Below are positions 18,913-36,193 of a DNA stretch of 36,193 nt, one piece after another (the first letter of the stretch is position 1; each line of letters starts with the position of its first letter). This stretch comes from a virus. The notes under the pieces are model-generated. The model did no database searches, was not told the origin of the DNA, and worked only from the letters and a program-made list of their open reading frames with translations. The position numbers and the translations under genes are program-made. Location of the stretch: IMG/VR virus record IMGVR_UViG_3300045988_064948. One strand, 5' to 3'.

Positions 18913-19049
18913 TGGAGCATGAGATGATAGCCGTGCCGATGCCGCGTGAGTTGTACGAAAACATCTGCAAGCTTGCCAAACAGAACGACTTGACAAAAGC
19001 GGCGCAAACAAGAATACTAATCAAGAAAGGACTTGAGCACATTGGATAA
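18912..19049 (+). CDS. Ribbon-helix-helix (CopG/Arc-like) DNA-binding protein
   Basis: 45 aa. IAVPMPRELYENICKLAKQNDLTKAAQTRILIKKGLE fits a beta-strand plus two helices. GGAGG RBS. Confidence 0.5.
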   Translation: MEHEMIAVPMPRELYENICKLAKQNDLTKAAQTRILIKKGLEHIG

Positions 19050-19668
19050 TTACTTTAACGACCTGTATTCGGTCAATGTCAACGGACACACAGAAAAGAA
19101 AAACAATCTCACTTATCTTTCGTGGGCGTGGGCGTGGGGCGAGATTAAGAAGAGACACCCCGATGCGGAATACACCGTCTACGAAAATGCCGACGGCTGG
19201 AACTACCACACCGACGGGCGCACTTGCTGGGTTAAAACAGGAGTAACCGTCAACGGAATCGAGCACATAGAATATCTGCCGGTTATGGATTACAAAAACA
19301 AGTCAATCCCGGTCGAAAATGTCACATCATACGATGTCAACAAGTCAATCCAGCGGTCGCTGACAAAGGCTTGTGCGCGTCATGGTTTGGGCTTGTATAT
19401 TTACGCAGGAGAAGATTTGCCTGAAGAAGAAGCCAACGAAAAGCAGGACGCGAGCAGGAATGCCAAAAATACCGCCGTAAACAACATTATAAGCGGGCTT
19501 GCAAAGGCGCGTGGGAAAAGTGACGGCGAAATTTTAAACGCGCTTATGAGGCATATCTCGAAGCCTGAGGGCACAACAATAGAAAGCCTTGAATATGATG
19601 ACCTCATGGACGCGATAAAAATTTTGAACGATTGGAGGCTAAAAGTGGATGGAAGTAAAAAATCTTGA
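19033..19668 (+). CDS. Single-strand annealing protein (DUF1071 / Sak3-like, Rad52 superfamily)
   Basis: LTYLSWAWAWGEIKKRHPDAEY...LPVMDYKNKSI...NKSIQRSLTKACARHGLGLYIYAGEDLP. The start is uncertain (TTG at 19033 or 19042). Confidence 0.7.
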   Translation: MSTLDNYFNDLYSVNVNGHTEKKNNLTYLSWAWAWGEIKKRHPDAEYTVYENADGWNYHTDGRTCWVKTGVTVNGIEHIEYLPVMDYKNKSIPVENVTSYDVNKSIQRSLTKACARHGLGLYIYAGEDLPEEEANEKQDASRNAKNTAVNNIISGLAKARGKSDGEILNALMRHISKPEGTTIESLEYDDLMDAIKILNDWRLKVDGSKKS

Positions 19669-20453: not shown

Positions 20454-20656
20454 GACAAAATTGCTTTGCTTACGGCTCGGCAACAGAAAACGGCTGCAAG
20501 GCGTTAATAAAGCGCGAGTGTGACAAATGCAAGTTTTACAAAACTACAAACGACGGCGAAATTGAAAAGCTGAATTGTGAGCTTAGAATCCGCCGCGTAT
20601 ATGGAATGTCATCAAAACAATTTTTAGATAGCAGGAGGACAAACGACAATGATTAA
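20447..20656 (+). CDS. Hypothetical small Cys-containing protein
   Basis: 69 aa, coupled to both flanking genes by overlaps. Confidence 0.45.
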   Translation: MVRQNCFAYGSATENGCKALIKRECDKCKFYKTTNDGEIEKLNCELRIRRVYGMSSKQFLDSRRTNDND

Positions 20657-21014
20657 CAATGTAACACTTATCGGCAGACTTACCGCAACGCCCGAACTTA
20701 GGCAGACCACCACAGGCAAAACAGTGGTATCATTTTGTATCGCCGTAGAAAGACGATTTGACCGCGCCACATCGGATTTTATCAACATAGTGGCGTGGAA
20801 CAAGACCGCCGAGTTCGTTAGCAAGTATTTTGCAAAAGGCGATTTGATTGCTTTGACTGGCAGCATACAAACTCGCAAATATGAGGACAAGGACGGCAAC
20901 AAGCGCACAGCGTTTGAAGTGTTGGCAGATGACGTCAGCTTTTGCGCAAAGAAAGAGAAATCCTCAGAGCCTGAGTTTGAAGAAATAAAAATAAGCGGTG
21001 ACCTTCCGTTTTAA
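20649..21014 (+). CDS. ssb: Single-stranded DNA-binding protein
   Basis: OB-fold N-terminus MINNVTLIGRLTATPELRQTTTGKTVVSFCIAVER...NIVAWNKTAEF and an acidic C-terminal tip ending DLPF. Confidence 0.9.
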   Translation: MINNVTLIGRLTATPELRQTTTGKTVVSFCIAVERRFDRATSDFINIVAWNKTAEFVSKYFAKGDLIALTGSIQTRKYEDKDGNKRTAFEVLADDVSFCAKKEKSSEPEFEEIKISGDLPF

Positions 21015-21223: not shown

Positions 21224-21246
21224 AAAAAATAATGGAGGCAACGAAC

Positions 21247-21912
21247 ATGAAACAGACAATTGAGGGATTTAGTCAGGAATACGCTATGACGCTCAAGAAG
21301 ACGGTTGCAACCAATGAAGGCGAAAAAACTGTAAAAATTGACTGTACCGACCTTGTTATTTTGCGCTGGTTCACAGATTTTTACCCGAATATGCGCAAAA
21401 CAATAATTAGCGGGCGCGAATATGTCATGGTTACGCATAGCGATTTGGTAGAGGATATGCCAATGATTGGCATTTCAAAAAGGGCGTTTATTGAAAGAAT
21501 GCAGAAGCTGGTGGGGTTTGGAATACTTGATTATCAGCTCGTAAAAGAAGGCGGCACATTTTCGTTTTATGCGTTTGGCAAGAACTTTGAACCTTTATGC
21601 GGATGTCGCACAGCCGAAAAAGACCTTGTTATAACGGCTACAGACGAGATTGTGGGGTATCTAAACAAAAAAGCGCATACCAATTTTAAGACTAACAGCA
21701 AGCGCACACACAGATATATTTTTGAGAGATTGGCAGAGGGCTATACAGTGCAGGACTTCAAAACGGTTATTGACAAGAAATATGACGATTGGGCGGAAAC
21801 TGAGTTTGAAAAGTATTTGCGACCGTCCACGCTGTTTGGCGATAGATTTGAGGACTATTTAAATGAGTCTAAACGCAAGAAGAATTATTGCGATTCGGAG
21901 GGAATAAAATGA
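21247..21912 (+). CDS. Replisome organizer / DnaD-like protein 1
   Basis: GGAGG lies 8 nt upstream of the ATG at 21247. The C-terminal domain IVGYLNKKAHTNFKTNSKRTHRYIFERLAEGYTVQDFKTVIDKKYDDW...YLRPSTLFG..FEDYLN is typical of the phage replisome organizer C-terminal region. Confidence 0.65.
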   Translation: MKQTIEGFSQEYAMTLKKTVATNEGEKTVKIDCTDLVILRWFTDFYPNMRKTIISGREYVMVTHSDLVEDMPMIGISKRAFIERMQKLVGFGILDYQLVKEGGTFSFYAFGKNFEPLCGCRTAEKDLVITATDEIVGYLNKKAHTNFKTNSKRTHRYIFERLAEGYTVQDFKTVIDKKYDDWAETEFEKYLRPSTLFGDRFEDYLNESKRKKNYCDSEGIK

Positions 21913-22703
21913 ACGAAGTCACAGATAAAAACTACATAGTAATTCAATCTTTTATGGTGTCAGAACTGGGCTTAAAAGGAAACGAACTGCTGATATATGC
22001 TATTATATTCGGCTTTTCTCAGACCACGGGGCAGGCATTTCACGGCAGTTTGACATATCTTGAGAGCTGGACTAACAGCACGCGCCCGACGGTTATTTCG
22101 TCTCTCAAATCATTGGTAGAAAAAGGGTTGATAGAGAAAGAAGAGCAGACTATCAATGGCGTTAAGCGTTGCGGCTACTATGTGGTAGACAATTCAACCG
22201 ACGGCAAAGAAACTCCGCAGGGGGTAGTTAAAAATTTTAACGAAGGTAGTAAAAAAACTTTACATGGGGTAGTTAAAAATTTTAACGAAGGTAGTAAAAA
22301 AACTTTACCCAATAATATATTATATAATATAGTTGATAATATAGTAGATAATAATATTGTCGAGAACGCCGAAAAGCATGACATGAAAGTCATAACAGAA
22401 ATAGTCGACTATCTGAATGAGAAAGCTCATAAGAATTACAGGTCTTACAACAAGGAAACAATTAGACATATTAACGCAAGACTGAACGAGGGTCGCACCT
22501 TGTCAGATTTTAAACAGGTGATAGACAACAGATGCGCTTCATGGCTTGGTACAGACATGGAGCAATACCTGCGACCAAAAACGCTGTTTAGCTCAAACTT
22601 CGAGAGCTACTTGAACGCACCCGAGCCAAAACGCAGAGGGTCAGATGGGCGACTATTAGGCGAAAAATCAAACGGCTGGGAATTTGTATTCGGAGATGAT
22701 TAA
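21909..22703 (+). CDS. Replisome organizer / replication initiator 2 (winged-helix N-terminus, same C-terminal domain), containing the putative origin
   Basis: N-terminus ...LKGNELLIYAIIFGFSQ...TRPTVISSLKSLVEKGLIEKEE. C-terminus IVDYLNEKAHKNYRSYNKETIRHINARLNEGRTLSDFKQVIDNRCASW...YLRPKTLFS.NFESYLN. Confidence 0.7.
   Translation: MNEVTDKNYIVIQSFMVSELGLKGNELLIYAIIFGFSQTTGQAFHGSLTYLESWTNSTRPTVISSLKSLVEKGLIEKEEQTINGVKRCGYYVVDNSTDGKETPQGVVKNFNEGSKKTLHGVVKNFNEGSKKTLPNNILYNIVDNIVDNNIVENAEKHDMKVITEIVDYLNEKAHKNYRSYNKETIRHINARLNEGRTLSDFKQVIDNRCASWLGTDMEQYLRPKTLFSSNFESYLNAPEPKRRGSDGRLLGEKSNGWEFVFGDD
22221..22308. repeat. Two perfect 43-bp direct repeats (period 45 bp), each with two GGTAGTWAAAAA sub-repeats: putative iterons
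   Basis: GGGGTAGTTAAAAATTTTAACGAAGGTAGTAAAAAAACTTTAC occurs at 22221-22263 and 22266-22308. Sub-repeats start at 22223, 22245, 22268 and 22290. Confidence 0.9.
22309..22358. other. AT-rich segment adjacent to the iterons (putative DNA unwinding element)
   Basis: CCAATAATATATTATATAATATAGTTGATAATATAGTAGATAATAATATTG is about 85% A+T and has short GATAATA repeats. Confidence 0.5.
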
Positions 22704-23550: not shown

Positions 23551-23579
23551 TTGACAAAAGCGACGCAATGATATATAAT
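23551..23579 (+). promoter_or_regulatory. Promoter of the conserved AAAAAAGCTATTGACAA...ATATATAATATA class
   Basis: TTGACA at 23551-23556, 17-nt spacer, TATAAT at 23574-23579. Confidence 0.7.
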
Positions 23580-23601
23580 ATAATAAAAGGAGGCAAACAA
23601 A

Positions 23602-24012
23602 ATGAAGATAGTTTTAGACGAGGGAGCTTTTAAGCCTTACAAGGCGCATCCCGAAGATGCAGGATTTGACCTCATGTCAAGAGAGTGTCAGATAGTCCCA
23701 GAGCGGGGAAGCGCAATATTTGACACAGGCGTACATATCGAGATACCGCAGGGATATGTCGGATTTCTCAAGAGCAAGAGCGGGCTTAATGTCAAGCGCG
23801 GAATAACAAGCGAGGGCGTTATTGACGCAGGCTATACAGGCAGTATTTGCGTAAAATTGTACAACAACGCCCTGATTCCCTACTTAGTCAAAAAGGGCGA
23901 TAAGATAACGCAACTCGTCATTTTGCCGATTTACAGCGACGAGCTCGAAGTCGTCGATAGTCTCGACGAGACGGCACGCGGTAATAACGGATTCGGTTCA
24001 AGCGGGAGGTAA
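23602..24012 (+). CDS. dut: dUTP diphosphatase
   Basis: Motifs AGFDL, GLNVKRGITSEGVIDAGYTG and RGNNGFGSSG. Confidence 0.9.
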   Translation: MKIVLDEGAFKPYKAHPEDAGFDLMSRECQIVPERGSAIFDTGVHIEIPQGYVGFLKSKSGLNVKRGITSEGVIDAGYTGSICVKLYNNALIPYLVKKGDKITQLVILPIYSDELEVVDSLDETARGNNGFGSSGR

Positions 24013-24017
24013 ACAAA

Positions 24018-24233
24018 ATGACCCTTGAAATAAAACAACTCAACGCCACTGCTCCGTATTTTTTGGGCGGAGTTCAAAAAATCACAGACAAAACCGAGTA
24101 TGGCGACGGACATTTCGCAATAACCATTTTCGACAGGCGAATATTCGTAGCATCGTGTTTTGAGTATGTTAAAGATGTTGAAAAAGAAAAATACTATGTA
24201 AAAATGGGAAAATGGGTAGGTGGCGAAAAATGA
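24018..24233 (+). CDS. Hypothetical protein (71 aa)
   Basis: GGGAGG RBS. No motifs recognised. Confidence 0.5.
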   Translation: MTLEIKQLNATAPYFLGGVQKITDKTEYGDGHFAITIFDRRIFVASCFEYVKDVEKEKYYVKMGKWVGGEK

Positions 24234-24282
24234 ACAAAGTGTGCATCGGAACAGCGTAACAAGATACAGGAGATGAATAATT

Positions 24283-24459
24283 ATGTTTGAAGTTAATTAC
24301 AAGGACAACGCCGGAATATGGCAGGATTCCCCGGTTTACGCCGTTGACGAGAAAAACTCGCGCTTTTTACTTGTCAATGATAACGGACGATTTTTTTGGA
24401 TAGAGATAAGCAAATGCCGCGAAGGAGGGAGCGAGTGCTATTATTATGATGAAGATTAA
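24283..24459 (+). CDS. Hypothetical protein (58 aa)
   Basis: AGGAG upstream. MFEVNYKDNAGIWQDSPVYAVDEKNSRFLLVNDNGRFFWIEISKCREGGSECYYYDED. Below the track cut-off. Confidence 0.4.
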   Translation: MFEVNYKDNAGIWQDSPVYAVDEKNSRFLLVNDNGRFFWIEISKCREGGSECYYYDED

Positions 24460-24793
24460 AAATGCTATAACCCCGTCTGCTGAACGGCAGGAAGTGAAAA
24501 ACACGACTTGCAAAGATTGTTTACACAGTGAAGTTTGCCATATGCGGGAAGTCTGCAACGACATTGAAGAGCAAATAAAAGAGTTGGGCTGTATGGATTT
24601 TATTGCTCGCTCTGATGCACAAGAGATTAAACATGGCAAATGGGTAAAGGACGATTCGGACGGTTGCTATTGTTCAGTTTGCGAGTGGTACGCTGACTAC
24701 GACTATGATTATGTCACCAACAACGGGTTAGGCAATGATGATTTTAACTATTGTCCGCACTGCGGCGCAAAAATGGACGGAGGTAAAGAATGA
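24446..24793 (+). CDS. Zinc-ribbon paralogue P1 (QEIKHGKW ... YCPHCGAKMDGG family)
   Basis: Shares the DAQEIKHGKW box and the C-terminal CPHCGAKMDGG with P2-P4. Confidence 0.65.
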   Translation: MMKIKNAITPSAERQEVKNTTCKDCLHSEVCHMREVCNDIEEQIKELGCMDFIARSDAQEIKHGKWVKDDSDGCYCSVCEWYADYDYDYVTNNGLGNDDFNYCPHCGAKMDGGKE

Positions 24794-25092
24794 GCGATTA
24801 TATTGACCGTGCTGCACTCGGGATAGGCTTGTGTAACCGAGATGTTTTTGAAAACAAGGGTTATGCGGACGGCTGGAATGCCGCTGTTAAAATTTTAAAA
24901 GAAGCTCCCGTTGCTGATGTGCAAGAAATTAAACACGGTAAATGGAAGCTGTGCTATGAAGATTGGAGAAGGCAAATCGCGGGCGATGAGTGCTCCGCTT
25001 GTGGGTTCCAGCATTACGGGACGTGTATATCGCACTATCATTACTGCCCCAACTGCGGCGCAAAAATGGACGGAGGTAATAACAATGCGTGA
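24790..25092 (+). CDS. Zinc-ribbon paralogue P2
   Basis: MSDYIDRAALG...APVADVQEIKHGKW...YCPNCGAKMDGG. The N-terminal ~52 aa are ~80% identical to P4. Confidence 0.7.
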   Translation: MSDYIDRAALGIGLCNRDVFENKGYADGWNAAVKILKEAPVADVQEIKHGKWKLCYEDWRRQIAGDECSACGFQHYGTCISHYHYCPNCGAKMDGGNNNA

Positions 25093-25378
25093 GATACTTT
25101 TTCGTGGAAAAGGCGATAAAAAATATAATGGTGGTATGTGGTATTTCGGTGTGCCTATTCGCTGTTATGACGGCGACTGGCAGATTTGCACCGATAATAG
25201 CAAAAGGACGGTAATACCTGAAACGATAGGGCAGTACACAGGTCTTAAAGATAAAAACGGCACAAAGATTTTTGAGGGCGATATGGTTATGTTTCCAATT
25301 TCAGATGAGCAACATACAAAGTGTGATTATGGAACAGTCATCGGTAATATCCACGATAATAAGTTGGAGGATTTTTAA
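25085..25378 (+). CDS. YopX-family protein, copy 1
   Basis: MREILFRGK...ETIGQYTGLKDKNGTKIFEGDMV...GNIHDN is typical of YopX. The ATG lies 8 nt after GGAGG. Confidence 0.75.
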   Translation: MREILFRGKGDKKYNGGMWYFGVPIRCYDGDWQICTDNSKRTVIPETIGQYTGLKDKNGTKIFEGDMVMFPISDEQHTKCDYGTVIGNIHDNKLEDF

Positions 25379-25379
25379 A

Positions 25380-25715
25380 ATGGACTATAGCGATTGTTTA
25401 GGATATCAGCTTGGATTTTGTCGGTTTAGGTGTACCAAACCTGAAAGCTGTGATAATTTCAAAAGCAAATCGAAGTTAATCGTGTTGCCGTGTAGCGTTG
25501 GAGACACAGTTTGGTATATCACAGGAATAAGACATAATCTAATTAAGCCGGCAAAAATAGAAGAAATTATTATAGGCAAAGACGGCATAAAAGACTTATA
25601 TGTGCAGGGTGATAGTTGCAGTTTTGAAAACTCGTTTGATATTTTTTATACTACCGAAGAAGAGGCACAAAGAGCTCTTAAAGGAGGCAACAAGGAGGTA
25701 ACGGATAATGGCTGA
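25380..25715 (+). CDS. Hypothetical protein, paralogue pair Q1
   Basis: GGAGG RBS. Shares PC.VGDTVW...EEA.RALK with 25708..26115. Confidence 0.6.
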   Translation: MDYSDCLGYQLGFCRFRCTKPESCDNFKSKSKLIVLPCSVGDTVWYITGIRHNLIKPAKIEEIIIGKDGIKDLYVQGDSCSFENSFDIFYTTEEEAQRALKGGNKEVTDNG

Positions 25716-26115
25716 TGCAGACAGAGAACGACTGATTGAAATTCTGAAACTTGATACTTGTCCATCGCCTTATCTTTGCGACGAGAATTGCAAGTATGCG
25801 AACCTTAAACAGTGCTATGAGGAAAGGACGGCAGACTTACTTCTTGAACACGGCGTTATCGTGCCTCCTTGCAAGGTGGGTGATACGGTATGGTGGGTCA
25901 CTGCAATCGTTGACGAAAACTGCGAGGAAAAGCCCGACATTTTGCTTGGCGAGATTGCCAGTTTTTCCATGCAAAAAGAGGGGCTTTGGGCGTTCTGTCG
26001 ATATGTTGGTGGCTTGACTTTTTGGCATTTAGTTTCTGATTATTTCGGTAAAACCGTATTTCTCACCCGTGAAGGGGCAGAACGAGCGTTGAAGGAGCGT
26101 GAAGACAATAGCTGA
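25708..26115 (+). CDS. Hypothetical protein, paralogue pair Q2
   Basis: AGGAGG RBS. PPCKVGDTVWWVT...FGKTVFLTREGAERALKE. Confidence 0.6.
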   Translation: MADADRERLIEILKLDTCPSPYLCDENCKYANLKQCYEERTADLLLEHGVIVPPCKVGDTVWWVTAIVDENCEEKPDILLGEIASFSMQKEGLWAFCRYVGGLTFWHLVSDYFGKTVFLTREGAERALKEREDNS

Positions 26116-26536
26116 ATACATAGAGCGTGAGGCAGTGATTGATGAAATTGAAGGCGCAACTTGGTATCACATAAGTTGTCAAAAAAATTTAGTTGAAGGA
26201 GCTGCGTGTGAAGCTGATGCACTTTATAAAGCCACAGACATTTACAATGTTATAAAGTCAGCTCCCGCCGTAGATGTACAAGAGATTAAACATGGTGAAT
26301 GGATTGAGGATAGCTATTACGATATTCCTTGCGTATGTTCATGTTGCGGAGCGGAAGCGCAATATACAAGCACCTTTAAAGAAACATTTGACTATGATTG
26401 GGAAGAAAACTTATGCCCTACAGGGTACGAAGAAATAAGAGAATATATTAGAACGCCGTTTTGTTCTAATTGCGGCGCGAAAATGGACGGAGGTACGAAT
26501 GATGATAGCAAAAAAAGCGTTAGAGCTTCTGAATGA
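26099..26536 (+). CDS. Zinc-ribbon paralogue P3
   Basis: GTG start in an overlap with the upstream gene. EYIEREAV...APAVDVQEIKHGEW...FCSNCGAKMDGG. Confidence 0.6.
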   Translation: MKTIAEYIEREAVIDEIEGATWYHISCQKNLVEGAACEADALYKATDIYNVIKSAPAVDVQEIKHGEWIEDSYYDIPCVCSCCGAEAQYTSTFKETFDYDWEENLCPTGYEEIREYIRTPFCSNCGAKMDGGTNDDSKKSVRASE

Positions 26537-26789
26537 TGTAGAATTTTCTGAAAAGTATCAAGGCGTACAAGAATATACAGAAATGCTTATCGTGTGCAAA
26601 GAAGCCCTCGAAAAGCAGATACCAAAGAAGCCTTATTTTGGCGAAGCCTTGGGCTATAAAGGCTTTAACGGGTACTTATGTCCGATATGCCGTAATTGGC
26701 TTTTATATCCCGACGAAATACCTAATTCGCGTGATTCATTCTGCTCTTTTTGTGGGCAGAAGATTGACTGGTCGGAGGTAAAAAAATGA
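26499..26789 (+). CDS. Zinc-ribbon protein, paralogue pair R1
   Basis: CKEALEKQIPKKP...CPICRN...FCSFCGQKIDW. Paralogous to 27690..28031. Confidence 0.6.
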   Translation: MMIAKKALELLNDVEFSEKYQGVQEYTEMLIVCKEALEKQIPKKPYFGEALGYKGFNGYLCPICRNWLLYPDEIPNSRDSFCSFCGQKIDWSEVKK

Positions 26790-27112
26790 GTGATTATATT
26801 GACCGCGCGGCGCTTGGAATAGACTTTTGCAGGTGGAATGTTTTTGAAAACAAAAGCTATGTAGATGGTTGGAACGCCGCCATTAAAATTTTAAAAGAAG
26901 CTCCTGCTGCTGATGTACAAGAGATTAAACACGGGAAGTGGATTGAAACTCAAGAACCGTTGGGTTGGTGCGATATTGATTGCGCTGAATGTTCTGTTTG
27001 CCACGAAAGTTGGATTATAGACGAAGATTCAAGCATTGACGATTACGAATGTATGTGGCACTACTGTCCGAACTGCGGCGCAAAAATGGACGGAGAGAAT
27101 AACAATGCGTGA
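26786..27112 (+). CDS. Zinc-ribbon paralogue P4
   Basis: MSDYIDRAALG...APAADVQEIKHGKW...YCPNCGAKMDGE. Confidence 0.7.
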   Translation: MSDYIDRAALGIDFCRWNVFENKSYVDGWNAAIKILKEAPAADVQEIKHGKWIETQEPLGWCDIDCAECSVCHESWIIDEDSSIDDYECMWHYCPNCGAKMDGENNNA

Positions 27113-27515
27113 GATACTTTTTCGTGGCAAAACAATAGGCAACGGTGAATGGGTTGAGGGATATTATTATAAAGCTAAATATTGCAGAACTGACGACGAA
27201 CTTTGTGATTATATTACTGTTCCGCACCCAAAAGAATACAACGAGCCGAGTTCGCACTATATTGTAAACCCTGAAACCGTAGGGCAGTACACAGGTCTCA
27301 AAGATAAAAACGGCACAAAGATTTTTGAGGGCGATATAGTTTTGTTGAAAGGCGATGATGAGCCTTATCAAGTCGTTTTTGATGAATCCTGTTTTCAAGT
27401 TTATAGCGACAGTGTTCGCTATGCTATGGATAACTTTTACGACTACGAGATAGAGGTCATCGGCAATATCTATGATGTCCCCGAGCTATTAGGAGGGAAT
27501 AACAATGTCGAATGA
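27105..27515 (+). CDS. YopX-family protein, copy 2
   Basis: MREILFRGK...ETVGQYTGLKDKNGTKIFEGDIV...GNIYD. Stretches of near nucleotide identity to copy 1. Confidence 0.75.
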   Translation: MREILFRGKTIGNGEWVEGYYYKAKYCRTDDELCDYITVPHPKEYNEPSSHYIVNPETVGQYTGLKDKNGTKIFEGDIVLLKGDDEPYQVVFDESCFQVYSDSVRYAMDNFYDYEIEVIGNIYDVPELLGGNNNVE

Positions 27516-27684
27516 TATTAAAACTGGTGACTTCGTAAAATGCGTTGAAATACCGTATTACGGTGTTTCGGGCGTAGTTATCAAGCAGTATTGTCCTACT
27601 GCTTGCGAAGAGCAGACAATGATAAGATGTATTGACAGCAGGGAGTTTCATGCTCCCACAAGATGTTTTATAAAAGTGGGGTGA
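27505..27684 (+). CDS. Hypothetical protein (59 aa)
   Basis: GGAGGG RBS. MSNDIKTGDFVKCVEIPYYGVSGVVIKQYCPTACEEQTMIRCIDSREFHAPTRCFIKVG. Just below the track cut-off. Confidence 0.45.
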   Translation: MSNDIKTGDFVKCVEIPYYGVSGVVIKQYCPTACEEQTMIRCIDSREFHAPTRCFIKVG

Positions 27685-27689
27685 CGAAA

Positions 27690-28031
27690 ATGACACTTGA
27701 AGAAGCAATCGACATTGTGAAATGTGCAATCGGAGAGGTCGAATGGAATTATCCTCTTGATTACGCTGAAGCGTTTGAAGTTGCGATTGAAGCTCTCGAA
27801 AAGCAGATACCGCGAAAGTGTCGCATTAAGAGCACCGCAAAGTTACAAACTTTTTATTGCCCTACTTGCGAACAGGTTATTGTATCAAGGATTGAAAATG
27901 AGTGGTTAGCAGGGCGATTACAGAAATATTGTGATAGTTGCGGACAGGCGTTAATTTGGGGTGATTATGAAACTCCTGACCCTGATGATTATTGCAGTTG
28001 CGGAGAATTGAAGGAGGGTGACACGGAATGA
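27690..28031 (+). CDS. Zinc-ribbon protein, paralogue pair R2
   Basis: AFEVAIEALEKQIPRK...CPTCEQ...YCDSCGQALIW. Confidence 0.6.
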   Translation: MTLEEAIDIVKCAIGEVEWNYPLDYAEAFEVAIEALEKQIPRKCRIKSTAKLQTFYCPTCEQVIVSRIENEWLAGRLQKYCDSCGQALIWGDYETPDPDDYCSCGELKEGDTE

Positions 28032-28726
28032 AACCTATCTATATACCGAAAGGAAAAGCAAGGGAATACGGAGATTACGCAATAAACATTTATACAGGAT
28101 GTCCGCACAGGTGTTATTACTGTTTCGCACCAAATGTTTTGCGTCGCGACCGTGAATTATTCCACAGCAATATAACCCCACGAGAAAACATTGTGGAGGA
28201 AACGGCAAAACAAATTGCGCGTGAGAACATAACAGGAAAGCTTATACATCTTTGCTTTACCTGCGACTCGTACCCGACAGGATATGACAGTACACCTACA
28301 AGGGAAATAATTAAAATACTTAAAGATAGCGGCAATAATGTGCAGATTTTAACCAAGGGTGACGGCAACCGTGATTTTGACTTGCTTGATGAAAATGACT
28401 GGTATGGAATAACTCTTGACGGAATAAAAGGTTGTTGCAAAGCGCCCTATCGGGAAAGGCTAAATAGTCTTGCCGAAGCACATAACAGAGGCGTAAAAAC
28501 TTGGGTGTCGTTTGAGCCTGTAACCGACGGCGAACAATTTTTTATTGACCTGCACCGTGTCTCATTTGTTGATAAGGTCAAAATCGGCAAACTGAACTAT
28601 CACCCCTCAAACATTGATTGGAAAGACTTCGGCAAAAAAGCAGAGGACTTATGTAAAAAGTTAAACATTGACTATTACATAAAAGATAGTTTAAGAGCTG
28701 AAATGGAAGGTGATGCCAATGGCTGA
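28028..28726 (+). CDS. Radical SAM domain protein (short, SplB/COG1533-like N-terminus)
   Basis: The CX3CX2C cluster motif in NIYTGCPHRCYYCFAP lies near the N-terminus. 232 aa; GGAGGG RBS. Confidence 0.65.
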   Translation: MKPIYIPKGKAREYGDYAINIYTGCPHRCYYCFAPNVLRRDRELFHSNITPRENIVEETAKQIARENITGKLIHLCFTCDSYPTGYDSTPTREIIKILKDSGNNVQILTKGDGNRDFDLLDENDWYGITLDGIKGCCKAPYRERLNSLAEAHNRGVKTWVSFEPVTDGEQFFIDLHRVSFVDKVKIGKLNYHPSNIDWKDFGKKAEDLCKKLNIDYYIKDSLRAEMEGDANG

Positions 28727-29147
28727 TGCAGACAGATGTATATGCTGCGGAGAGATAGTCCCCGAAGGTCGGCAAATATGTCCGCAATGCGAGCGCAAAA
28801 GGTACATCTACACTATTCCTGATATCCCGCCGTCGTTAAACAAGTTCGCAGGGCGCGAGAATGTATGGGCGTACAGAGCGGACAAAAAGCAGTGGGAAGC
28901 TCTGTGCGCGGCGTACTGCCGCCCGAAGCCGTCCGAGCCGATTAAAAAGTGCGTTGTCAGAATTACATACTTTTTCCGCACAAGGCAGCGGCACGACCCC
29001 GACAACTACAACGGCAAATTTATCCTCGACGGCTTGCGCGAAGCGGGAATAATTGAAGATGACAGCTTTTCAAATGTCGAGCTTCAGCTGTGCGGGAGCT
29101 ATGACAAAGAAAACCCGCGAACAGAAATAACAGTAAAGGAGCTTTAA
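28719..29147 (+). CDS. rusA: RusA-family Holliday junction resolvase with an N-terminal zinc ribbon
   Basis: CICCGE...CPQC is followed by ...RHDPDNYNGKFILDGLREAGIIEDDS, the RusA catalytic Asp motif pattern. An alternative ATG is at 28710. Confidence 0.75.
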   Translation: MADADRCICCGEIVPEGRQICPQCERKRYIYTIPDIPPSLNKFAGRENVWAYRADKKQWEALCAAYCRPKPSEPIKKCVVRITYFFRTRQRHDPDNYNGKFILDGLREAGIIEDDSFSNVELQLCGSYDKENPRTEITVKEL

Positions 29148-29149
29148 AA

Positions 29150-29509
29150 ATGGATTGCAACAAAACGATAGACTTCTTTGCCGAACTTAAAAGACTTTGT
29201 AATTCACGCACAAGGTGCACAACTGATGCGGCTAACAAAGAGCAATGCCCGATGTTTGGGTTTTGTGAGCGCGCGCTCACAAAAATCTGCGTCGAAGATG
29301 CTATGAAGTTAGTTGAGGTTATACAAAAATGGAGCAACGAACACCCAAAGAAAACATACGCACAGGATTTTTTTGAAAAGTTCCCAAAAGCACCCAAGGA
29401 CAAATCATTTAAAGAAAAATGTCCTTGGGTGTGTCGAATGGGAATATACGGCGGAGAGTGTCCGGGGGCAGGCTGCGATGAATGCTGGAACGAACCAATG
29501 GAGGAATAA
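29150..29509 (+). CDS. Cys-rich hypothetical protein
   Basis: 119 aa. AAGGAG RBS. ...WSNEHPKKTYAQDFFEKFP...CDECWNEP. Confidence 0.55.
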   Translation: MDCNKTIDFFAELKRLCNSRTRCTTDAANKEQCPMFGFCERALTKICVEDAMKLVEVIQKWSNEHPKKTYAQDFFEKFPKAPKDKSFKEKCPWVCRMGIYGGECPGAGCDECWNEPMEE

Positions 29510-29511
29510 CA

Positions 29512-29886
29512 ATGCATGAAACAAGAGATGCAGCACGGGAGCTGCGAATGCAAGGCTTAACCTTTGCAGAAATAGGCAAAAGGCTTGGAGTGTCAAAGCA
29601 GAGAATCGCGCAGTGTTGCGCAGGAATGAATCCCGAACAGACAGCTTGGGCTTGTCACAAGGAAGACCTTGACTGCATAATTTATGTGGGTTTAAAAAAG
29701 TGGATGCTTGAAAACAGAGTATCAGTGCCCGAAATGATGCGCAGAATAGGCTTAGACACTGGGAGCAGCCGGTCTGAACACTTTAAAAACAGGCTAAAAG
29801 GCAAAACGCAATTATCGATAACCGAGATAAAAAAAATACTCGCCGTAACTGGCGGAACATTCGAGCAGATGTTCACAACCGATTGA
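29512..29886 (+). CDS. HTH regulator (sigma region 4 / LuxR-like HTH at the N-terminus)
   Basis: ELRMQGLTFAEIGKRLGVSKQRIAQ. GGAGG RBS upstream of the ATG at 29512. It directly precedes the promoter of the methylase/terminase operon. Confidence 0.55.
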   Translation: MHETRDAARELRMQGLTFAEIGKRLGVSKQRIAQCCAGMNPEQTAWACHKEDLDCIIYVGLKKWMLENRVSVPEMMRRIGLDTGSSRSEHFKNRLKGKTQLSITEIKKILAVTGGTFEQMFTTD

Positions 29887-29911
29887 TTTTTATTGCTGGT
29901 TATGATATAAT
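29883..29911 (+). promoter_or_regulatory. Promoter (TTGATT, 17-nt spacer, TGaTATAAT), same class as 13157
   Basis: TTGATT at 29883-29888 and TATAAT at 29906-29911, preceded by TG. Confidence 0.6.
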
Positions 29912-29929
29912 ATTAAGCGGAGGGATATT

Positions 29930-31063
29930 ATGCAGATAATACAGAAAAAGCTTTCGGACATTGTGCCGTATGCAAACAACACAAAGAAGCACGATGAAAC
30001 ACAGATTAAAAATGTCGCGGAAAGCATCAAAAAATACGGCTGGGTTCAGCCGCTTGTCATAGACGATGACGGCACAATCGTTATAGGTCACTGTCGCGCT
30101 CTTGCCGCCAAAAAGCTGGGAATAGAAGAAGTGCCATGCGTGGTGGTTAGCGACCTGACAGAAGAAGAAATAAACGCGCTGAGAATCGTCGACAACAAGA
30201 CAAACGAAAGCCCGTGGGACTTTGACCTGTTGAGCGCGGAACTGCCCGAAATCGATTTAAGCGATTTTGAGTTTGATTTTGGCATTGAGGACGAGGAAGA
30301 AGAAACCGAGATTGTGGAAGATGAAGCACCCAAAGTTGACGAAGATGCAGAGCCGATTTCAAAGCTGGGCGATATTTGGAAGTTAGGCAGACACAGGCTG
30401 ATGTGCGGAAATTCTCTTGCACAGGCGGATATTGATAATTTGCTTGGTGGGGCTAAATGCGAATTGACATTTACCGATCCTCCGTATCAGTTGGAAACAC
30501 AGGGTGGTGGAATACTCAAAAAGGCAAACAGCATGAAACAAATCAAGCAAAATGGAGTTGATACATTTGACCCGTCCATGCTTATCCTTCAAAGCAAAAC
30601 AAATATTTATTGCCATAACAAGCCTTTAATCAAGAAATACATCGAACTTGCAGAAACAAACAATCAGCCCTATGATTTGTGTTTTTACAAGAAACTTTGC
30701 ACCGTTCCTAATTACAAAGGGCACATGATGACAGACTGCGAATATATTGCAATCATTGGGAAACAAGACCCAAACAAGGGATTGCCGAAAGAAACATACT
30801 CAAAGTGTTATATTGGCAAGAAAGACAATGATAACGAGTTGAGTTATTCAAAGCCCGTGGAACTATGTGCAAAGTATATTCAGCTTTATGGGAAAAACAA
30901 CATTTTGGATTTGTTCGGAGGTAGCGGGTCAACCCTTATCGCTTGTGAACAGTTAGGTCGCACTTGCTATATGATGGAACTTGACCCAAAGTATTGCGAT
31001 GTCATTATTAAGCGGTGGGAAAACTTAACGGGAGAAAAGGCGGTGCTGTTGAATGACGATTGA
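29930..31063 (+). CDS. ParB-like nuclease domain fused to a DNA methyltransferase (beta-class N4/N6)
   Basis: N-terminus ...YGWVQPLVIDDDGTIVIGHCRALAAKKLG. Methylase motif IV TDPPY precedes motif I LDLFGGSGST. Confidence 0.85.
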   Translation: MQIIQKKLSDIVPYANNTKKHDETQIKNVAESIKKYGWVQPLVIDDDGTIVIGHCRALAAKKLGIEEVPCVVVSDLTEEEINALRIVDNKTNESPWDFDLLSAELPEIDLSDFEFDFGIEDEEEETEIVEDEAPKVDEDAEPISKLGDIWKLGRHRLMCGNSLAQADIDNLLGGAKCELTFTDPPYQLETQGGGILKKANSMKQIKQNGVDTFDPSMLILQSKTNIYCHNKPLIKKYIELAETNNQPYDLCFYKKLCTVPNYKGHMMTDCEYIAIIGKQDPNKGLPKETYSKCYIGKKDNDNELSYSKPVELCAKYIQLYGKNNILDLFGGSGSTLIACEQLGRTCYMMELDPKYCDVIIKRWENLTGEKAVLLNDD

Positions 31064-33107: not shown

Positions 33108-34460
33108 ATTAAAACTTATCAGGATTTAGTGGAAGTCGGAAGCAACGAGAACGCGCGAATCTCTTTTGTGCTGGACGCGATAAACGAGCACAAAGGAAGC
33201 AAGGCTTACAGAATCGCGCTCGATGCAGACGCATACTGGCGTGGCGAAAATCCGACCATAATGAAGTATGAAAAAATCATCTATGATATGCAGGGCAAAG
33301 CCCATATCGACAGGTGGACGGCAAATCATAAGATAGCAACTAACTTTTTTTACTTTGCGGTAACGCAGGAAAATCAGTTCCTGCTGTCTAACGGCACTAA
33401 CTTCGGCAAAGAAGACACAAAAGAAAAGCTCGGCAAAAACTTCGACACACAGTTGCAAAAATTGGGTATATATGCCCTCTGCGGCGGCGTGTCTTTCGGC
33501 TTTTTTAACCTCGACCATATTGACGCTTTTTCTTTGCTTGAATTCGTCCCGCTCTACGATGAGGAAAACGGTGCACTAATGGCTGGCATAAGATTTTGGC
33601 AGATAGCAGATGACAAACCGCTCAGAGCGACGCTCTATGAGCTGGACGGCTATACGGACTATATCAAAGACACGACAGCAAGAGTGCTAAACCCGAAAAG
33701 ACCGTACAAGATACAGATAGCCCATACAGAAGCGGATGGCGACTATATCTATGACGGCGAGAATTACCCCGAGTTTCCCATTGTGCCGATGTGGGCAAAC
33801 GATAAAAAGCAATCAGAGCTCGTCGGCAGACGCGGAACACTGGACGCTTTCGACCTGCTAAATTCTAACCTTGTTAACAATGTCGAGGACGCGAACTTGA
33901 TATACTGGGTTTTGACAAACTGTAACGGCATGGACGAGATAGACGACGCAAAATTTATAGAGCAGATTAAGTCGAGCCATATCGTACACGCAGACGGCGA
34001 CGCAGGAGCAAAGGCAGAGGCACACAGCGTAGAAGTACCCGTAAGCGCGTCGGAGTTGTCAATCGAGACAATACACGACAGACTTTATCAAGACTTTATG
34101 TGCTTTAATCCTGCTTCGCTTTCGGGCGGCAATAAGACCGCAACGGAAATTAACGCGGCTTATGAGACGCTCAACAACAAAGTGGACGCTTACGAGTATT
34201 GTGTCAACGAGTTTGTTATGGCAATACTCAAAATTGCGGGAATTGAAGACGAAGTGTCTTTCACCCGCTCTCAGCAGTCGAACAAAAACGAGCAAATGGA
34301 AATGCTTTTGTCCGCCGCTGAATATCTTGACGATGACACGATAACAGAACAGGTCTGCAATATTCTTGGGCTTGGCGATAGGGTTGACGAGATAATCGCG
34401 AACAAGCGCACAGAAGAAGTGAGCCGAGTTGAACCGCTGGAGGTGATAGACAATGATTAA
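33108..34460 (+). CDS. Portal protein (SPP1 gp6-like)
   Basis: ~445 aa directly after TerL and the coiled-coil gene. The start is ambiguous: GTG at 33129 has poor SD spacing, whereas ATT at 33108 lies 9 nt after AAGGAG. Confidence 0.8.
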   Translation: MKTYQDLVEVGSNENARISFVLDAINEHKGSKAYRIALDADAYWRGENPTIMKYEKIIYDMQGKAHIDRWTANHKIATNFFYFAVTQENQFLLSNGTNFGKEDTKEKLGKNFDTQLQKLGIYALCGGVSFGFFNLDHIDAFSLLEFVPLYDEENGALMAGIRFWQIADDKPLRATLYELDGYTDYIKDTTARVLNPKRPYKIQIAHTEADGDYIYDGENYPEFPIVPMWANDKKQSELVGRRGTLDAFDLLNSNLVNNVEDANLIYWVLTNCNGMDEIDDAKFIEQIKSSHIVHADGDAGAKAEAHSVEVPVSASELSIETIHDRLYQDFMCFNPASLSGGNKTATEINAAYETLNNKVDAYEYCVNEFVMAILKIAGIEDEVSFTRSQQSNKNEQMEMLLSAAEYLDDDTITEQVCNILGLGDRVDEIIANKRTEEVSRVEPLEVIDND

Positions 34461-35139
34461 ACTTGCAGACGGTAGAGGGCATTTGTATCAGTGGGACACA
34501 GGCAGACAGGTTGAGTGTGACGCTGAACAGGTGCATTTTTCCAATCACCACTACGGCACGAGCATAGACGCGGATGTCAAAGACGGCAAGGCAATGATAC
34601 CAAATCAGCTGTTGACAAGCGCAATTCCGTTAAAGGCGTGGGCTTGGGTTAAAGACAGCAGCGGCGAATACACCAAAGAAGAACAGATATTTTTAGTTGC
34701 CAAAAGAAACAAGCCCTCCGATTATGTGTACACGCCTACGGAAATAAAGACTTGGCAGGACTTACAGAATCAGATAGGCGATTTAAGCAATCTTAAAACT
34801 GCGCACAAAGACAATCTTGTCAACGCAATAAATGACGCGGCAGGAAGTGGAGGCGGCGGAGCGTCAACCGCCGAAGACGTCAGCTATACCAACGTCGCAC
34901 TGCCAAACATATCGACGGTCGGTGGCGCACTCGACGAGCTTGTCCCCAAATCTCACACCCACACCAACAAAGACACGCTTGACAAGCTCTCCGACTCGAA
35001 CGGCAAACTCCAATATAACGGCTCTGATGTCGGCTTAAAGCCGGTCAAAGGTACTGACTACTGGACGGAGGCGGACAAGGCAGAGATAGTCGCGGACACA
35101 CTCGCCGCCCTGCCAAAATGGACGGGAGGTAGTTATTAA
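34453..35139 (+). CDS. Tail fibre-like protein
   Basis: The motifs DNLVNAINDA and SHTHTNKDTLDKLS recur in Firmicutes phage fibres (from memory). A Gly-rich linker is present. Confidence 0.5.
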   Translation: MIKLADGRGHLYQWDTGRQVECDAEQVHFSNHHYGTSIDADVKDGKAMIPNQLLTSAIPLKAWAWVKDSSGEYTKEEQIFLVAKRNKPSDYVYTPTEIKTWQDLQNQIGDLSNLKTAHKDNLVNAINDAAGSGGGGASTAEDVSYTNVALPNISTVGGALDELVPKSHTHTNKDTLDKLSDSNGKLQYNGSDVGLKPVKGTDYWTEADKAEIVADTLAALPKWTGGSY

Positions 35140-35912
35140 TGGCAAACGATAGAGTAGTTGACTCCGCCGTACTTGATGCCGCTATGACCTACACCGCTAA
35201 CCGGATTCGCAACAAGACAGGTGGCACAGACCTGATTGCATGGGACTCCGCTAAAGGTTTTGGCGACGCGGTTGACGCTATAGCTGGTTCAGACGAGGAT
35301 GCAATAATCCAGCGCACCATATCGGGCACATATTCAAATGACCGTATAACGACGGTCGGAGCGTGCGCATTTTTAGGATGTCAGGCTCTTGCAACGATTG
35401 ATTTGCCGAATGTTACTCAAGTTAAACGAAACGCTTTTGAGTCGTGCAATCGCTTACAGACAATAAATCTTCCTAAGGTCACCGAGTTTGACAAAGAGGT
35501 TTTTTTAAACACTTCAATACAACAAGCTGATTTCCCTTTAGTGACAACAATCGGAAACGGGTGTTTTTACATGGCGGCATCTCTGACATCTGCAAACCTA
35601 CCTCTTATTACGGATTTACCCGCTGATACCTTTCGCCTCTCGGCAATTCAAACAGCCGGTTTTTCGGCGGTAACAAATATAAACCGAACGGCGTTTACCG
35701 ACTGTACATCCCTTGAAACGCTCATTATCCGCACTCCGTCTGTTTGTGTGATTTCCGACATTTCGATTGCGTTGCGTGGAAGCAAGATAGCAGCGGGCAC
35801 GGGGTATATTTATGTGCCGGACAACCTTGTTGACAGCTACAAGGCAGCAACAAACTGGGTTACCCTTGCAAATCAAATCAAGCCGATTTCGGCGTTGGAG
35901 GCGAGCACATGA
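35139..35912 (+). CDS. BspA-type leucine-rich repeat protein (putative receptor-binding/adhesion protein)
   Basis: Repeated ~23-aa units: GACAFLGCQALATIDLPNVTQVKRNAFESCNRLQTINLPKVTEF...IGNGCFYMAASLTSANLPLITDL...INRTAFTDCTSLETLIIRT. Confidence 0.7.
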   Translation: MANDRVVDSAVLDAAMTYTANRIRNKTGGTDLIAWDSAKGFGDAVDAIAGSDEDAIIQRTISGTYSNDRITTVGACAFLGCQALATIDLPNVTQVKRNAFESCNRLQTINLPKVTEFDKEVFLNTSIQQADFPLVTTIGNGCFYMAASLTSANLPLITDLPADTFRLSAIQTAGFSAVTNINRTAFTDCTSLETLIIRTPSVCVISDISIALRGSKIAAGTGYIYVPDNLVDSYKAATNWVTLANQIKPISALEAST

Positions 35913-36115: not shown

Positions 36116-36193
36116 CGAGGACGCAGGCGAAACGCTTCCGCGAGATGATAACAAGAGCCGCCGCGAAGCTGACGAACGCCGAAGCTCTGACAA
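36112..36193 (+). CDS. 5' part of the CBM5/12-like tail-associated protein (continues at nt 56 of the circular map)
   Basis: The ATG at 36112 overlaps the upstream stop. It reads MTRTQAKRFREMITRAAAKL..., in frame with 7..399. Confidence 0.6.
   Translation, partial: MTRTQAKRFREMITRAAAKLTNAEALT
36139..36193. repeat. Second copy of the 55-nt terminal repeat
   Basis: Exact match to 1..55. Confidence 0.95.

Follow-up and report, generated by a model that had tools for sequence, protein, structure and literature searches.

Gene Content of the Array

The window analyzed here, the whole 36,193-nucleotide (nt) stretch of DNA of the IMG/VR virus record IMGVR_UViG_3300045988_064948, contained a densely packed array of small genes at positions 24446-28031 on the + strand. 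Listing and translation of open reading frames (ORFs) showed that the array consisted of four genes of a family designated P, two YopX genes, a pair of Q genes, and a pair of R genes. All of these were real + strand ORFs, as the original prediction had them. The array had also been put at ten percent of the genome, a figure that stands because a 55-nt identical terminal overlap (1-55 = 36139-36193) showed the assembly to be complete and closed into a circle of about 36,138 bp.

The four P genes were P1 (24446-24793), P2 (24790-25092), P3 (26099-26536), and P4 (26786-27112). All four P proteins matched one PHROG, phrog_22543 (E 3.1e-6, 2.8e-6, 3.3e-8, and 4.5e-7, respectively), and the P3 match covered profile positions 2-103 of 105. 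Both YopX proteins scored above the Pfam cut-off for PF09643 (YopX; 22.4 bits). YopX-1 (25085-25378; 97 aa) was internally shortened and matched profile positions 34-79 of 128 with 43.4 bits, while YopX-2 (27105-27515) was full length and matched positions 2-127 of 128 (74.4 bits, E 1.1e-20). R1 (26499-26789) and R2 (27690-28031) both matched phrog_10714 (E 7.4e-11 and 1.5e-10), and R2 carried the C-terminal tail GDYETPDPDDYCSCGELKEGDTE. Q1 (25380-25715) and Q2 (25708-26115) had PC.VGDTVW and A.RALK boxes in common. Q2 matched phrog_38832 (E 1.8e-5); Q1 had no PHROG match, and the pairwise BLAST similarity of Q1 and Q2 was weak (18 residues). In a large protein collection, Q1 and Q2 both belonged to one family of 4074 clusters. 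Two further small + strand ORFs accompanied these genes: u58 (24283-24459), an acidic ORF without a Pfam or PHROG match that overlapped the P1 start, and u59 (27505-27684), which contained Cys residues.

The relationships among these genes were far above chance, as seen in the common PHROGs of P and R, the PF09643 matches of YopX, and the shared Q family, and the paralogue families originally proposed are therefore upheld. The motifs quoted for them were present as given, with the exception that Q2 reads GAERALK where Q1 has EAQRALK. At the DNA level, 24785-24946 and 26781-26942 were 81% identical over 162 nt, 25039-25111 and 27059-27131 were 92% identical over 73 nt, and the central YopX boxes at 25211-25293 and 27264-27346 were 92% identical over 83 nt (proportion of synonymous differences 0-0.26).

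Modular Organization of the P, Q, and R Proteins

P and R proteins were each built of a variable N-terminal domain and a predicted C4 zinc ribbon whose two CxxC knuckles were separated by a variable insert, the domain and the ribbon being joined by a short conserved junction. The N-terminal parts of the P proteins represented three module types: A (P2 and, as a second, deeply diverged allele, P4), B (P3), and the Cys-rich type C (P1). Their middles formed four discrete cassettes: a (P1), b (P2), c (P3), and d (P4). Each cassette was found in other contigs, at 80-100% amino acid identity, in other combinations. In a deduplicated count, 11 of the 12 N-module and cassette combinations of P occurred elsewhere, as did 4 of 4 for R and 3 of 4 for Q. 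N-terminal halves were exchanged as freely as middles, and two chimeras crossed family lines, namely N_R2+cassette a and N_A+C_R1. The ribbon itself was common to P and R (hhalign probability 94.8% over 45 columns).

Family alignments of Q and R revealed the same modular design around the GVIVLPCKVGDTVW, GKTVFLTREEAERALKE, and EALEKQIPKKP boxes. R1 was comprised of a helical N-module, the EALEKQIPKKP box, and a zinc ribbon, and in Q proteins both the N-terminal part and the SH3-like barrel (modelled) between conserved boxes were variable. The architecture of conserved scaffold and variable insert put forward in the original prediction was thus borne out. Hypervariability by substitution was not, as the middles were discrete, conserved cassettes.

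Conserved boxes marked the module boundaries in the DNA. The junction box (..D[AV]QEIKHG[KE]W), the crossover site between N-module and cassette, lay at 24591-24648, 24893-24950, 26250-26307, and 26889-26946. The 3' box, which codes for YCPNCGAKMDGG and contains the Shine-Dalgarno sequence of the next gene, lay at 24749-24786, 25042-25079, 26459-26496, and 27062-27099. The 23-nt EALEKQIP box was present at 26601-26623 in R1 and at 27789-27811 in R2, its copies being 96% identical. The central YopX box was 83-96% identical in many other loci. All boxes were on the + strand.

Chimera breakpoints sat in boxes of 23-60 nt (QEIKHGKW, CPNCGAKMDGG, and EALEKQIP). Among related loci, which are numbered here with the prefix L, the P gene of L007 was P1-like up to CAAGAGATTAAACATGGCAAATGG (the QEIKHGKW codons) and P3-like beyond, and the R gene of L001 was R1-like up to GAAGCCCTCGAAAAGCAGATACC (the 23-nt EALEKQIP box) and R2-like beyond. 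Because its R gene switched from R1 to R2 at this box, L001 was without window positions 26624-27788, the exact interval between the two EALEKQIP direct repeats. In L004, L007, and L011, the junction box contained overlaps of 33-60 nt between BLAST segments that matched different window genes. It is very likely, on this pattern of combinations and breakpoints, that these genes evolved by module shuffling at conserved boxes.

In many family members (at L002 9709-10041, L018 4244-4787, and other loci), a Cys module of the form VVRCKDCK...DDFCSYGE[RL]K substituted for the HGxW...CPNCGAKMDGG ribbon. The module followed the same ADVxPVV junction as the ribbon that it replaced. The R2 end (27960-28031) was the tail of the RCKDCK...FCSYGE[RL]K module known from other family members.

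A diversity-generating retroelement was considered as a source of the variation and rejected, with no reverse transcriptase domain among the seven ORFs of at least 300 aa that were scanned. Six of these seven ORFs were an amidase, a Mu-F protein, a tail endopeptidase, a methylase, a terminase, and a portal protein; the seventh (510 aa, tail module) had no match.

Selection on the Modules and Age of the Proposed Duplication

The array had originally been read as containing a segmental duplication (P2+YopX-1 and P4+YopX-2), with diversifying selection acting on the middles of the P proteins. In such a history, tandem or segmental duplication within the genome would have been followed by fast point divergence of the middles under arms-race positive selection. 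The gene order shared by P2+YopX-1 and P4+YopX-2, the DNA blocks of 81-92% identity, and the concentration of variation between conserved boxes are consistent with it. The synonymous divergence (dS) is not: the N-module common to P2 and P4 had a dS of 1.56 (nonsynonymous divergence, dN, 0.084; dN/dS 0.05), so the copies are old, and a recent in-situ duplication was ruled out by this saturated value. Relative to its counterparts in L004 and L070, the P2 allele had a dS of 0.13-0.29; the P4 allele, set against the same counterparts, had a dS of 1.7-2.4. Because the N-module dS was saturated and near-identical counterparts of each allele were present in other phages, P2+YopX and P4+YopX are better explained as old alleles, co-assembled by recombination between phages, than as a recent duplication. 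The similar DNA blocks of the original prediction therefore remain, and the recent segmental duplication does not.

Different cassette types could not be aligned in their middles, which indicates replacement rather than substitution, and dN/dS was for this reason taken per cassette against its own counterparts in other loci. Where there were at least about 5 synonymous changes, dN/dS ranged from 0.015 to 0.44, well under 1, and both the cassettes and the N-module alleles recurred in other phages at 80-100% identity, in recombined form. The modules were under purifying selection and not under diversifying selection at the substitution level, contrary to what had been proposed for the middles. 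The model of in-genome duplication with point divergence is largely refuted, and it is an unlikely account of the array.

Synonymous divergence was uneven along the paired segments: the N-module was saturated, and values of 0-0.38 were obtained for the P/YopX junction and the central YopX box. The low values at the junction and in the YopX box fit frequent exchange through the boxes.

Copy Number and Cargo of the Slot Among Relatives

The array occupied a slot bounded upstream by a dUTPase gene (23602-24012, + strand; PF00692, E 4.8e-27) and downstream by a RusA-like resolvase gene (28710-29147, + strand; PF05866). At the distal end of the slot lay a gene for a 232-aa radical SAM protein (28028-28726, + strand; PF04055, E 9e-10; phrog_13321, listed as ‘unknown function’). 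Close relatives were sampled as 28 RusA-anchored loci showing RusA plus dut or DnaC, in which RusA was 89-99% identical. Nine of these loci had no P gene, eleven had one, five had two, one had three, and two had four. The two four-copy loci were the window and L162. Slot length ranged from 480 to 4690 bp, the window's slot being the longest, and several relatives had none of P, Q, R, or YopX. The slots of P-less relatives contained a PAPS-reductase-domain protein, a C5 DNA methylase, a fusion of both, or an HNH nuclease. In a second sample, of P-anchored loci, 37 of 81 had at least two P genes and one had five. Q and P genes, and likewise P and YopX genes, were often adjacent. Because content, length, and P copy number varied among close relatives, the slot is a hyperplastic hot spot for cargo, and its content is accessory.

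L162 (IMGVR_UViG_3300045988_033359) contained the same array and was 99.3% identical over 24259-31000. It was without the dUTPase and the following 71-aa ORF (u71; window 23598-24258 versus L162 3550-3554), and it kept the consensus promoter that precedes the dUTPase in the window. This promoter would drive the array directly in L162.

Redundancy of this kind had been called unexpected under capsid-size constraint in the original prediction. The argument was weak: the contigs of relatives were about 31-39 kb (and possibly incomplete), and headful packaging was suggested. The window encoded an SPP1-type portal and a Terminase_3 protein by Pfam, families which we take to point to this mode of packaging.

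Translation Signals, the P3 Start, and YopX-1

Genes of the array overlapped or abutted, and their ORFs were intact, with ribosome-binding sites and coupled starts. P1, P2, and P3 ended in AAA ATG GAC GGA GGT, whose KMDGG codons provide the following gene with its GGAGG Shine-Dalgarno sequence at a distance of 5-9 nt from the ATG. P4 carried the weaker GGAGAG. The 3' box is under a double constraint, coding and translational, because its KMDGG codons include the ribosome-binding site of the next gene.

P3 had ATA at 26108-26110 in place of the canonical ATG, which was present in 99% of the family, including the close relatives L001, L019, and L010. The sole in-frame start of P3 was GTG at 26099, with a Shine-Dalgarno sequence 1 nt away. 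A sequencing error is not the cause of the ATA because sister contig L162 also carries it. The G-to-A change behind it also replaces Gly with Ser where the end of Q2 overlaps P3. Translation of P3 may be weak, or the gene may have been silenced recently.

The ATA of P3, seen in both contigs, and YopX-1, which is without the C-terminal half of its domain, would suit an array of mostly non-functional baggage, i.e., recombination leftovers that persist because new insertions keep arising at the boxes and because about 3 kb of DNA is only weakly selected against. So would the relatives that fare well without these genes and the odd fusions found in relatives, such as the dUTPase-YopX tail in L189. 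Against this stand the intact ORFs with their ribosome-binding sites and coupled starts, the strong purifying selection on modules across phages, the size of the families (thousands of clusters), and the retention of an identical array in a second contig at 99.3% identity. Baggage accordingly has a small probability as an explanation of the array.

Family Size, Distribution, and Predicted Structures

A profile of the four P proteins gave at least 7358 P clusters at 90% identity. At 50% identity, there were 13,789 representatives at E <= 1e-3, a set whose weak matches include some generic zinc ribbons, and 455 of them were at E <= 1e-10. The Q family contained 4074 clusters and the R family at least 5646. 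Contigs with P family genes belonged to gut and rumen Oscillospiraceae, Ruminococcaceae, Acutalibacteraceae, and Lachnospiraceae. Yanshouia hominis BX1 and Clostridiales bacterium CCNA10 were candidate cultured carriers of a related prophage. The three PHROGs (phrog_22543, phrog_10714, and phrog_38832) were phage families, all listed as ‘unknown function’.

A search of 12 kb of DNA around the array against 50,697 GenBank phages gave no match. In protein-mode searches against GenBank phages, P4 found two unannotated fecal contigs only, and a typical family member found none. Because these searches were nearly empty, there was no isolated phage for comparison.

Across 103 diverse members, the P signature read M-x-[ED]-Y-I-[ED]-R-[ED]-A ... 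P-[AT]-A-D-V-x-[EP]-V-x-H-G-x-W in the first half, followed by ... C-S-x-C ... [YF]-C-P-[NH]-C-G-A-[KR]-M-D-G in the ribbon. Among the putative zinc-ligand Cys residues in these sequences, C80 was invariant and C83, C122, and C125 were 98-99% conserved. These residues form the two CxxC/CPxCG knuckles of the predicted C4 zinc ribbon. The AlphaFold2 (AF2) model of P3 had a mean predicted local distance difference test score (pLDDT) of 79.5 and consisted of a small alpha-beta-beta-alpha N-module followed by a long-hairpin zinc ribbon, with hairpins at the knuckles and a pLDDT of 92-95 in the ribbon. Scores for Pfam Zn_Ribbon_1 and Zn_ribbon_3 (13.6-15.9 bits) were below the cut-offs of 25-27 bits. 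Foldseek searches with the P3 model gave no match in the PDB (best E 0.3) and only uncharacterized ‘zinc-ribbon domain proteins’ in BFVD. A P family sequence profile searched against the PDB found only the knuckles of bL33 and rubredoxin (E about 1e-3 to 1). The AF2 model of Q2 (pLDDT 83.5) contained helices flanking an SH3-like beta-barrel, for which Foldseek returned weak matches to bL19, chromo-barrel, and Tudor folds (E 5e-3 or weaker).

Besides YopX, no family in Pfam, NCBIfam, or PADLOC was found above its curated cut-off for the array proteins, and PADLOC defense profiles gave one marginal match alone (P4, E 0.0077, 14.6 bits). The PDB relatives of YopX (2qyz, 2ox7, 2p84, and 2i2l) were all uncharacterized, and the YopX literature that was searched contained no functional study. 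Among longer P homologues there were no enzymatic domains or informative fusions, just tandem P-P fusions and extra zinc ribbons. P0252, P0127, P0253, and L189 contained in-frame fusions from slot deletions, including single polypeptides with two complete P units. In L189, at 7246-7473, a dUTPase N-terminus was joined in frame to the C-terminal tail of YopX.

Small zinc-ribbon proteins located between replication and late modules could be housekeeping or regulatory factors, either Ogr/Delta-type late-gene activators or replication accessories, with the copies serving different promoters or steps. One longer homologue, P0231, showed a weak, sub-threshold match to Ogr_Delta. No window protein, on the other hand, matched Ogr_Delta (PF04606) at E <= 1; P was absent from 9 of 28 close relatives, several of which were also without Q, R, and YopX; and copy number and module content varied freely. 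Profile searches of Pfam, NCBIfam, PHROG, PDB, and BFVD gave the families no housekeeping function, an assignment that would have told against the original prediction. The array proteins were also acidic, with isoelectric points (pI) of 4.2-6.5 and a median pI of 4.6 for the P family. Such acidity makes simple DNA binding less likely and favors protein binding or mimicry of nucleic acids. Housekeeping or regulatory roles are thus quite improbable.

Genome Setting

The phage is siphovirus-like and of gut Oscillospirales. Upstream of the array were genes for a Sak (Rad52-like) single-strand annealing protein (19033-19668, + strand; PF06378, E 6.8e-43), a single-stranded DNA-binding protein (SSB; 20649-21014, by profile match), two Phg_2220_C replication proteins, a DnaC/IstB-like ATPase, and the dUTPase. 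Downstream were the radical SAM protein, RusA, a helix-turn-helix (HTH) protein, a ParB-methylase, the terminase, and the portal. A predicted promoter with a 12/12 consensus of the sigma-70 type lay at 23551-23579 on the + strand, just upstream of the dUTPase. The operon to which the array belongs probably begins at this promoter, and no convincing terminator was seen between it and RusA. No integrase was found among the ORFs scanned, and the phage is therefore not claimed to be temperate; related sequences do occur in long bacterial contigs.

The radical SAM gene, which adjoins small Cys-rich ORFs, could be taken as the processing enzyme for Cys-rich precursors of ribosomally made modified peptides. 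It was found in few relatives only (L162, L184, and L037) and accompanied P, Q, and R in few loci. The Cys residues of the array proteins were arranged in CxxC pairs, as is typical of zinc-ribbon knuckles, and this part was modelled with high confidence, a leader/core organization was not visible, and the enzyme was short, with the Radical_SAM domain alone detected. Peptide precursors are a very remote prospect and were rejected because the radical SAM gene was unlinked to the families across loci.

Several other features of the genome were observed. The replication module also contained tandem paralogues (21232-21912 and 21888-22703), each a Phg_2220_C protein (E about 1e-27). A Cys-rich 119-aa protein at 29150-29509 had no Pfam or PHROG match. 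Its family was present in about half of the related loci, sometimes upstream of the dUTPase instead of downstream of RusA, which suggests a further mobile family of small proteins in this group of phages. Between the portal (33129-34460) and the Mu-F-like head protein (1793-2716) was a BspA-type leucine-rich-repeat protein (35139-35912). The same stretch (34453-35912 and 7-1404) contained two unassigned ORFs and an Amidase_3 protein (400-1404), neither a lysin nor a surface-type repeat protein being usual at this location.

Comparison With Known Systems

The window proteins matched phrog_22543, phrog_10714, and phrog_38832 at E 1e-5 to 1e-11. These PHROG entries record membership only; the shuffling, tandem arrays, family size, and dispensability seen here are not described there. 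Within YopX (PF09643/TIGR01671), YopX-2 was a full member and YopX-1 a partial one. The location of YopX in an early/middle accessory region is as in phages of Bacillus, Staphylococcus, and Streptococcus. Unlike the usual YopX gene, there were two copies here, one internally shortened, and each was coupled directly to a P gene.

P proteins share with generic C4 zinc ribbons (Zn_Ribbon_1, PF13240; bL33; rubredoxin-like) the two CxxC knuckles and the CPxCG motif. They differ in the preceding, family-specific P-[AT]-A-D-V-x-[EP]-V-x-H-G-x-W segment and in a variable insert of 20-50 residues. Among the products of phage accessory genes, Enki, which blocks AbiH and a retron, and the restriction-alleviation protein Lar are likewise small proteins for which a zinc ribbon is predicted, and Enki sets a precedent for such proteins in counter-defense. 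No sequence or structural relationship of P to either was detectable, so that the likeness is one of functional analogy and not of membership. For Lar (PF14354), no window protein matched, and BFVD returned a ‘restriction alleviation protein’ at E 0.11 only.

T4 has hyperplastic regions, and staphylococcal siphoviruses have an accessory region that contains dUTPase; both count as hyperplastic or ‘moron’ cargo regions. As in such regions, the slot here was at a fixed position and carried highly variable, small, non-essential genes among otherwise near-identical genomes. It differed in being dominated by paralogues of three modular families instead of unrelated ORFans. Botstein's modular theory reportedly invoked conserved linker sequences between modules. 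Phage mosaicism, as treated by De Paepe et al. (2014; PMC3945230), likewise involves short imperfect sequences, a Rad52-like gene, and mosaic relatives. In contrast to mosaicism from relaxed recombination, the exchange points here were inside genes, at domain junctions, so that protein domains and not only whole genes were shuffled, and the junctions were kept by constraint at the protein level.

Proposed Origin and Function of the Array

In the proposed mechanism, the boxes would be kept conserved by the needs of the protein and, for the 3' box, also by the ribosome-binding site of the next gene. Homologous recombination at these short boxes would swap modules between genes and between phages, and it would insert or delete blocks. 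The four-copy array was probably put together from long-diverged alleles in this way, its diversity coming from box recombination and not from point hypermutation. According to De Paepe et al. (2014; PMC3945230), annealing proteins of the Rad52-like type drive relaxed recombination between phage sequences that have diverged, and the phage's own Sak is the likely catalyst of the exchanges.

As to function, it is tentatively suggested that P, Q, and R proteins are protein-binding modulators of host or defense proteins, with a target of its own for each cassette. A role in counter-defense or host takeover is plausible from context, namely the acidity of the proteins, their dispensability, and the DNA-modification genes found in the same slot. 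Taken as a whole, a cargo slot of modular small proteins that were diversified by box recombination and that bind host or defense proteins is a moderately probable reading of the locus.

Several points weigh against this reading. The array proteins had no homology to known anti-defense proteins, and structure searches led to uncharacterized relatives or generic folds. A slot in common with methylases is a weak pointer to function. The dN/dS values per cassette were based on few substitutions, and the low divergence of the YopX box and the P/YopX junction could reflect selection on RNA or on ribosome-binding sites instead of exchange. Host RecA could do the work ascribed to Sak. The P-anchored sample was biased toward P carriers, and copy counts hinge on the sensitivity of the hidden Markov models. 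Lastly, the loss of the P3 start and the shortened YopX-1 suggest that part of the array may be decaying.

A stronger version of box recombination is that the array is a working cassette library, in which one genome would store multiple N-modules and zinc-ribbon cassettes flanked by recombinogenic boxes and Sak would continually yield new two-module combinations, expansions, and contractions within the population. This version is rather unlikely. If true, the array would be a recombination-based diversity generator for adaptors in counter-defense or host targeting, with a logic like that of antigenic-variation cassettes and distinct from retroelement-based diversification.

The array provides a clean illustration from nature of the ‘conserved linker’ mechanism, an old proposal for how phages evolve in modules, and shows it at work inside genes. 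P, Q, and R each comprise thousands of clusters in phages and prophages of the dominant gut and rumen Clostridia, and they have neither a structure nor a name. Being modular, dispensable, and housed in a slot in common with DNA-modification genes, they offer a handle on their biology: which host or defense proteins each cassette binds. If these proteins are counter-defense factors, few families of that kind in the gut virome would be larger.

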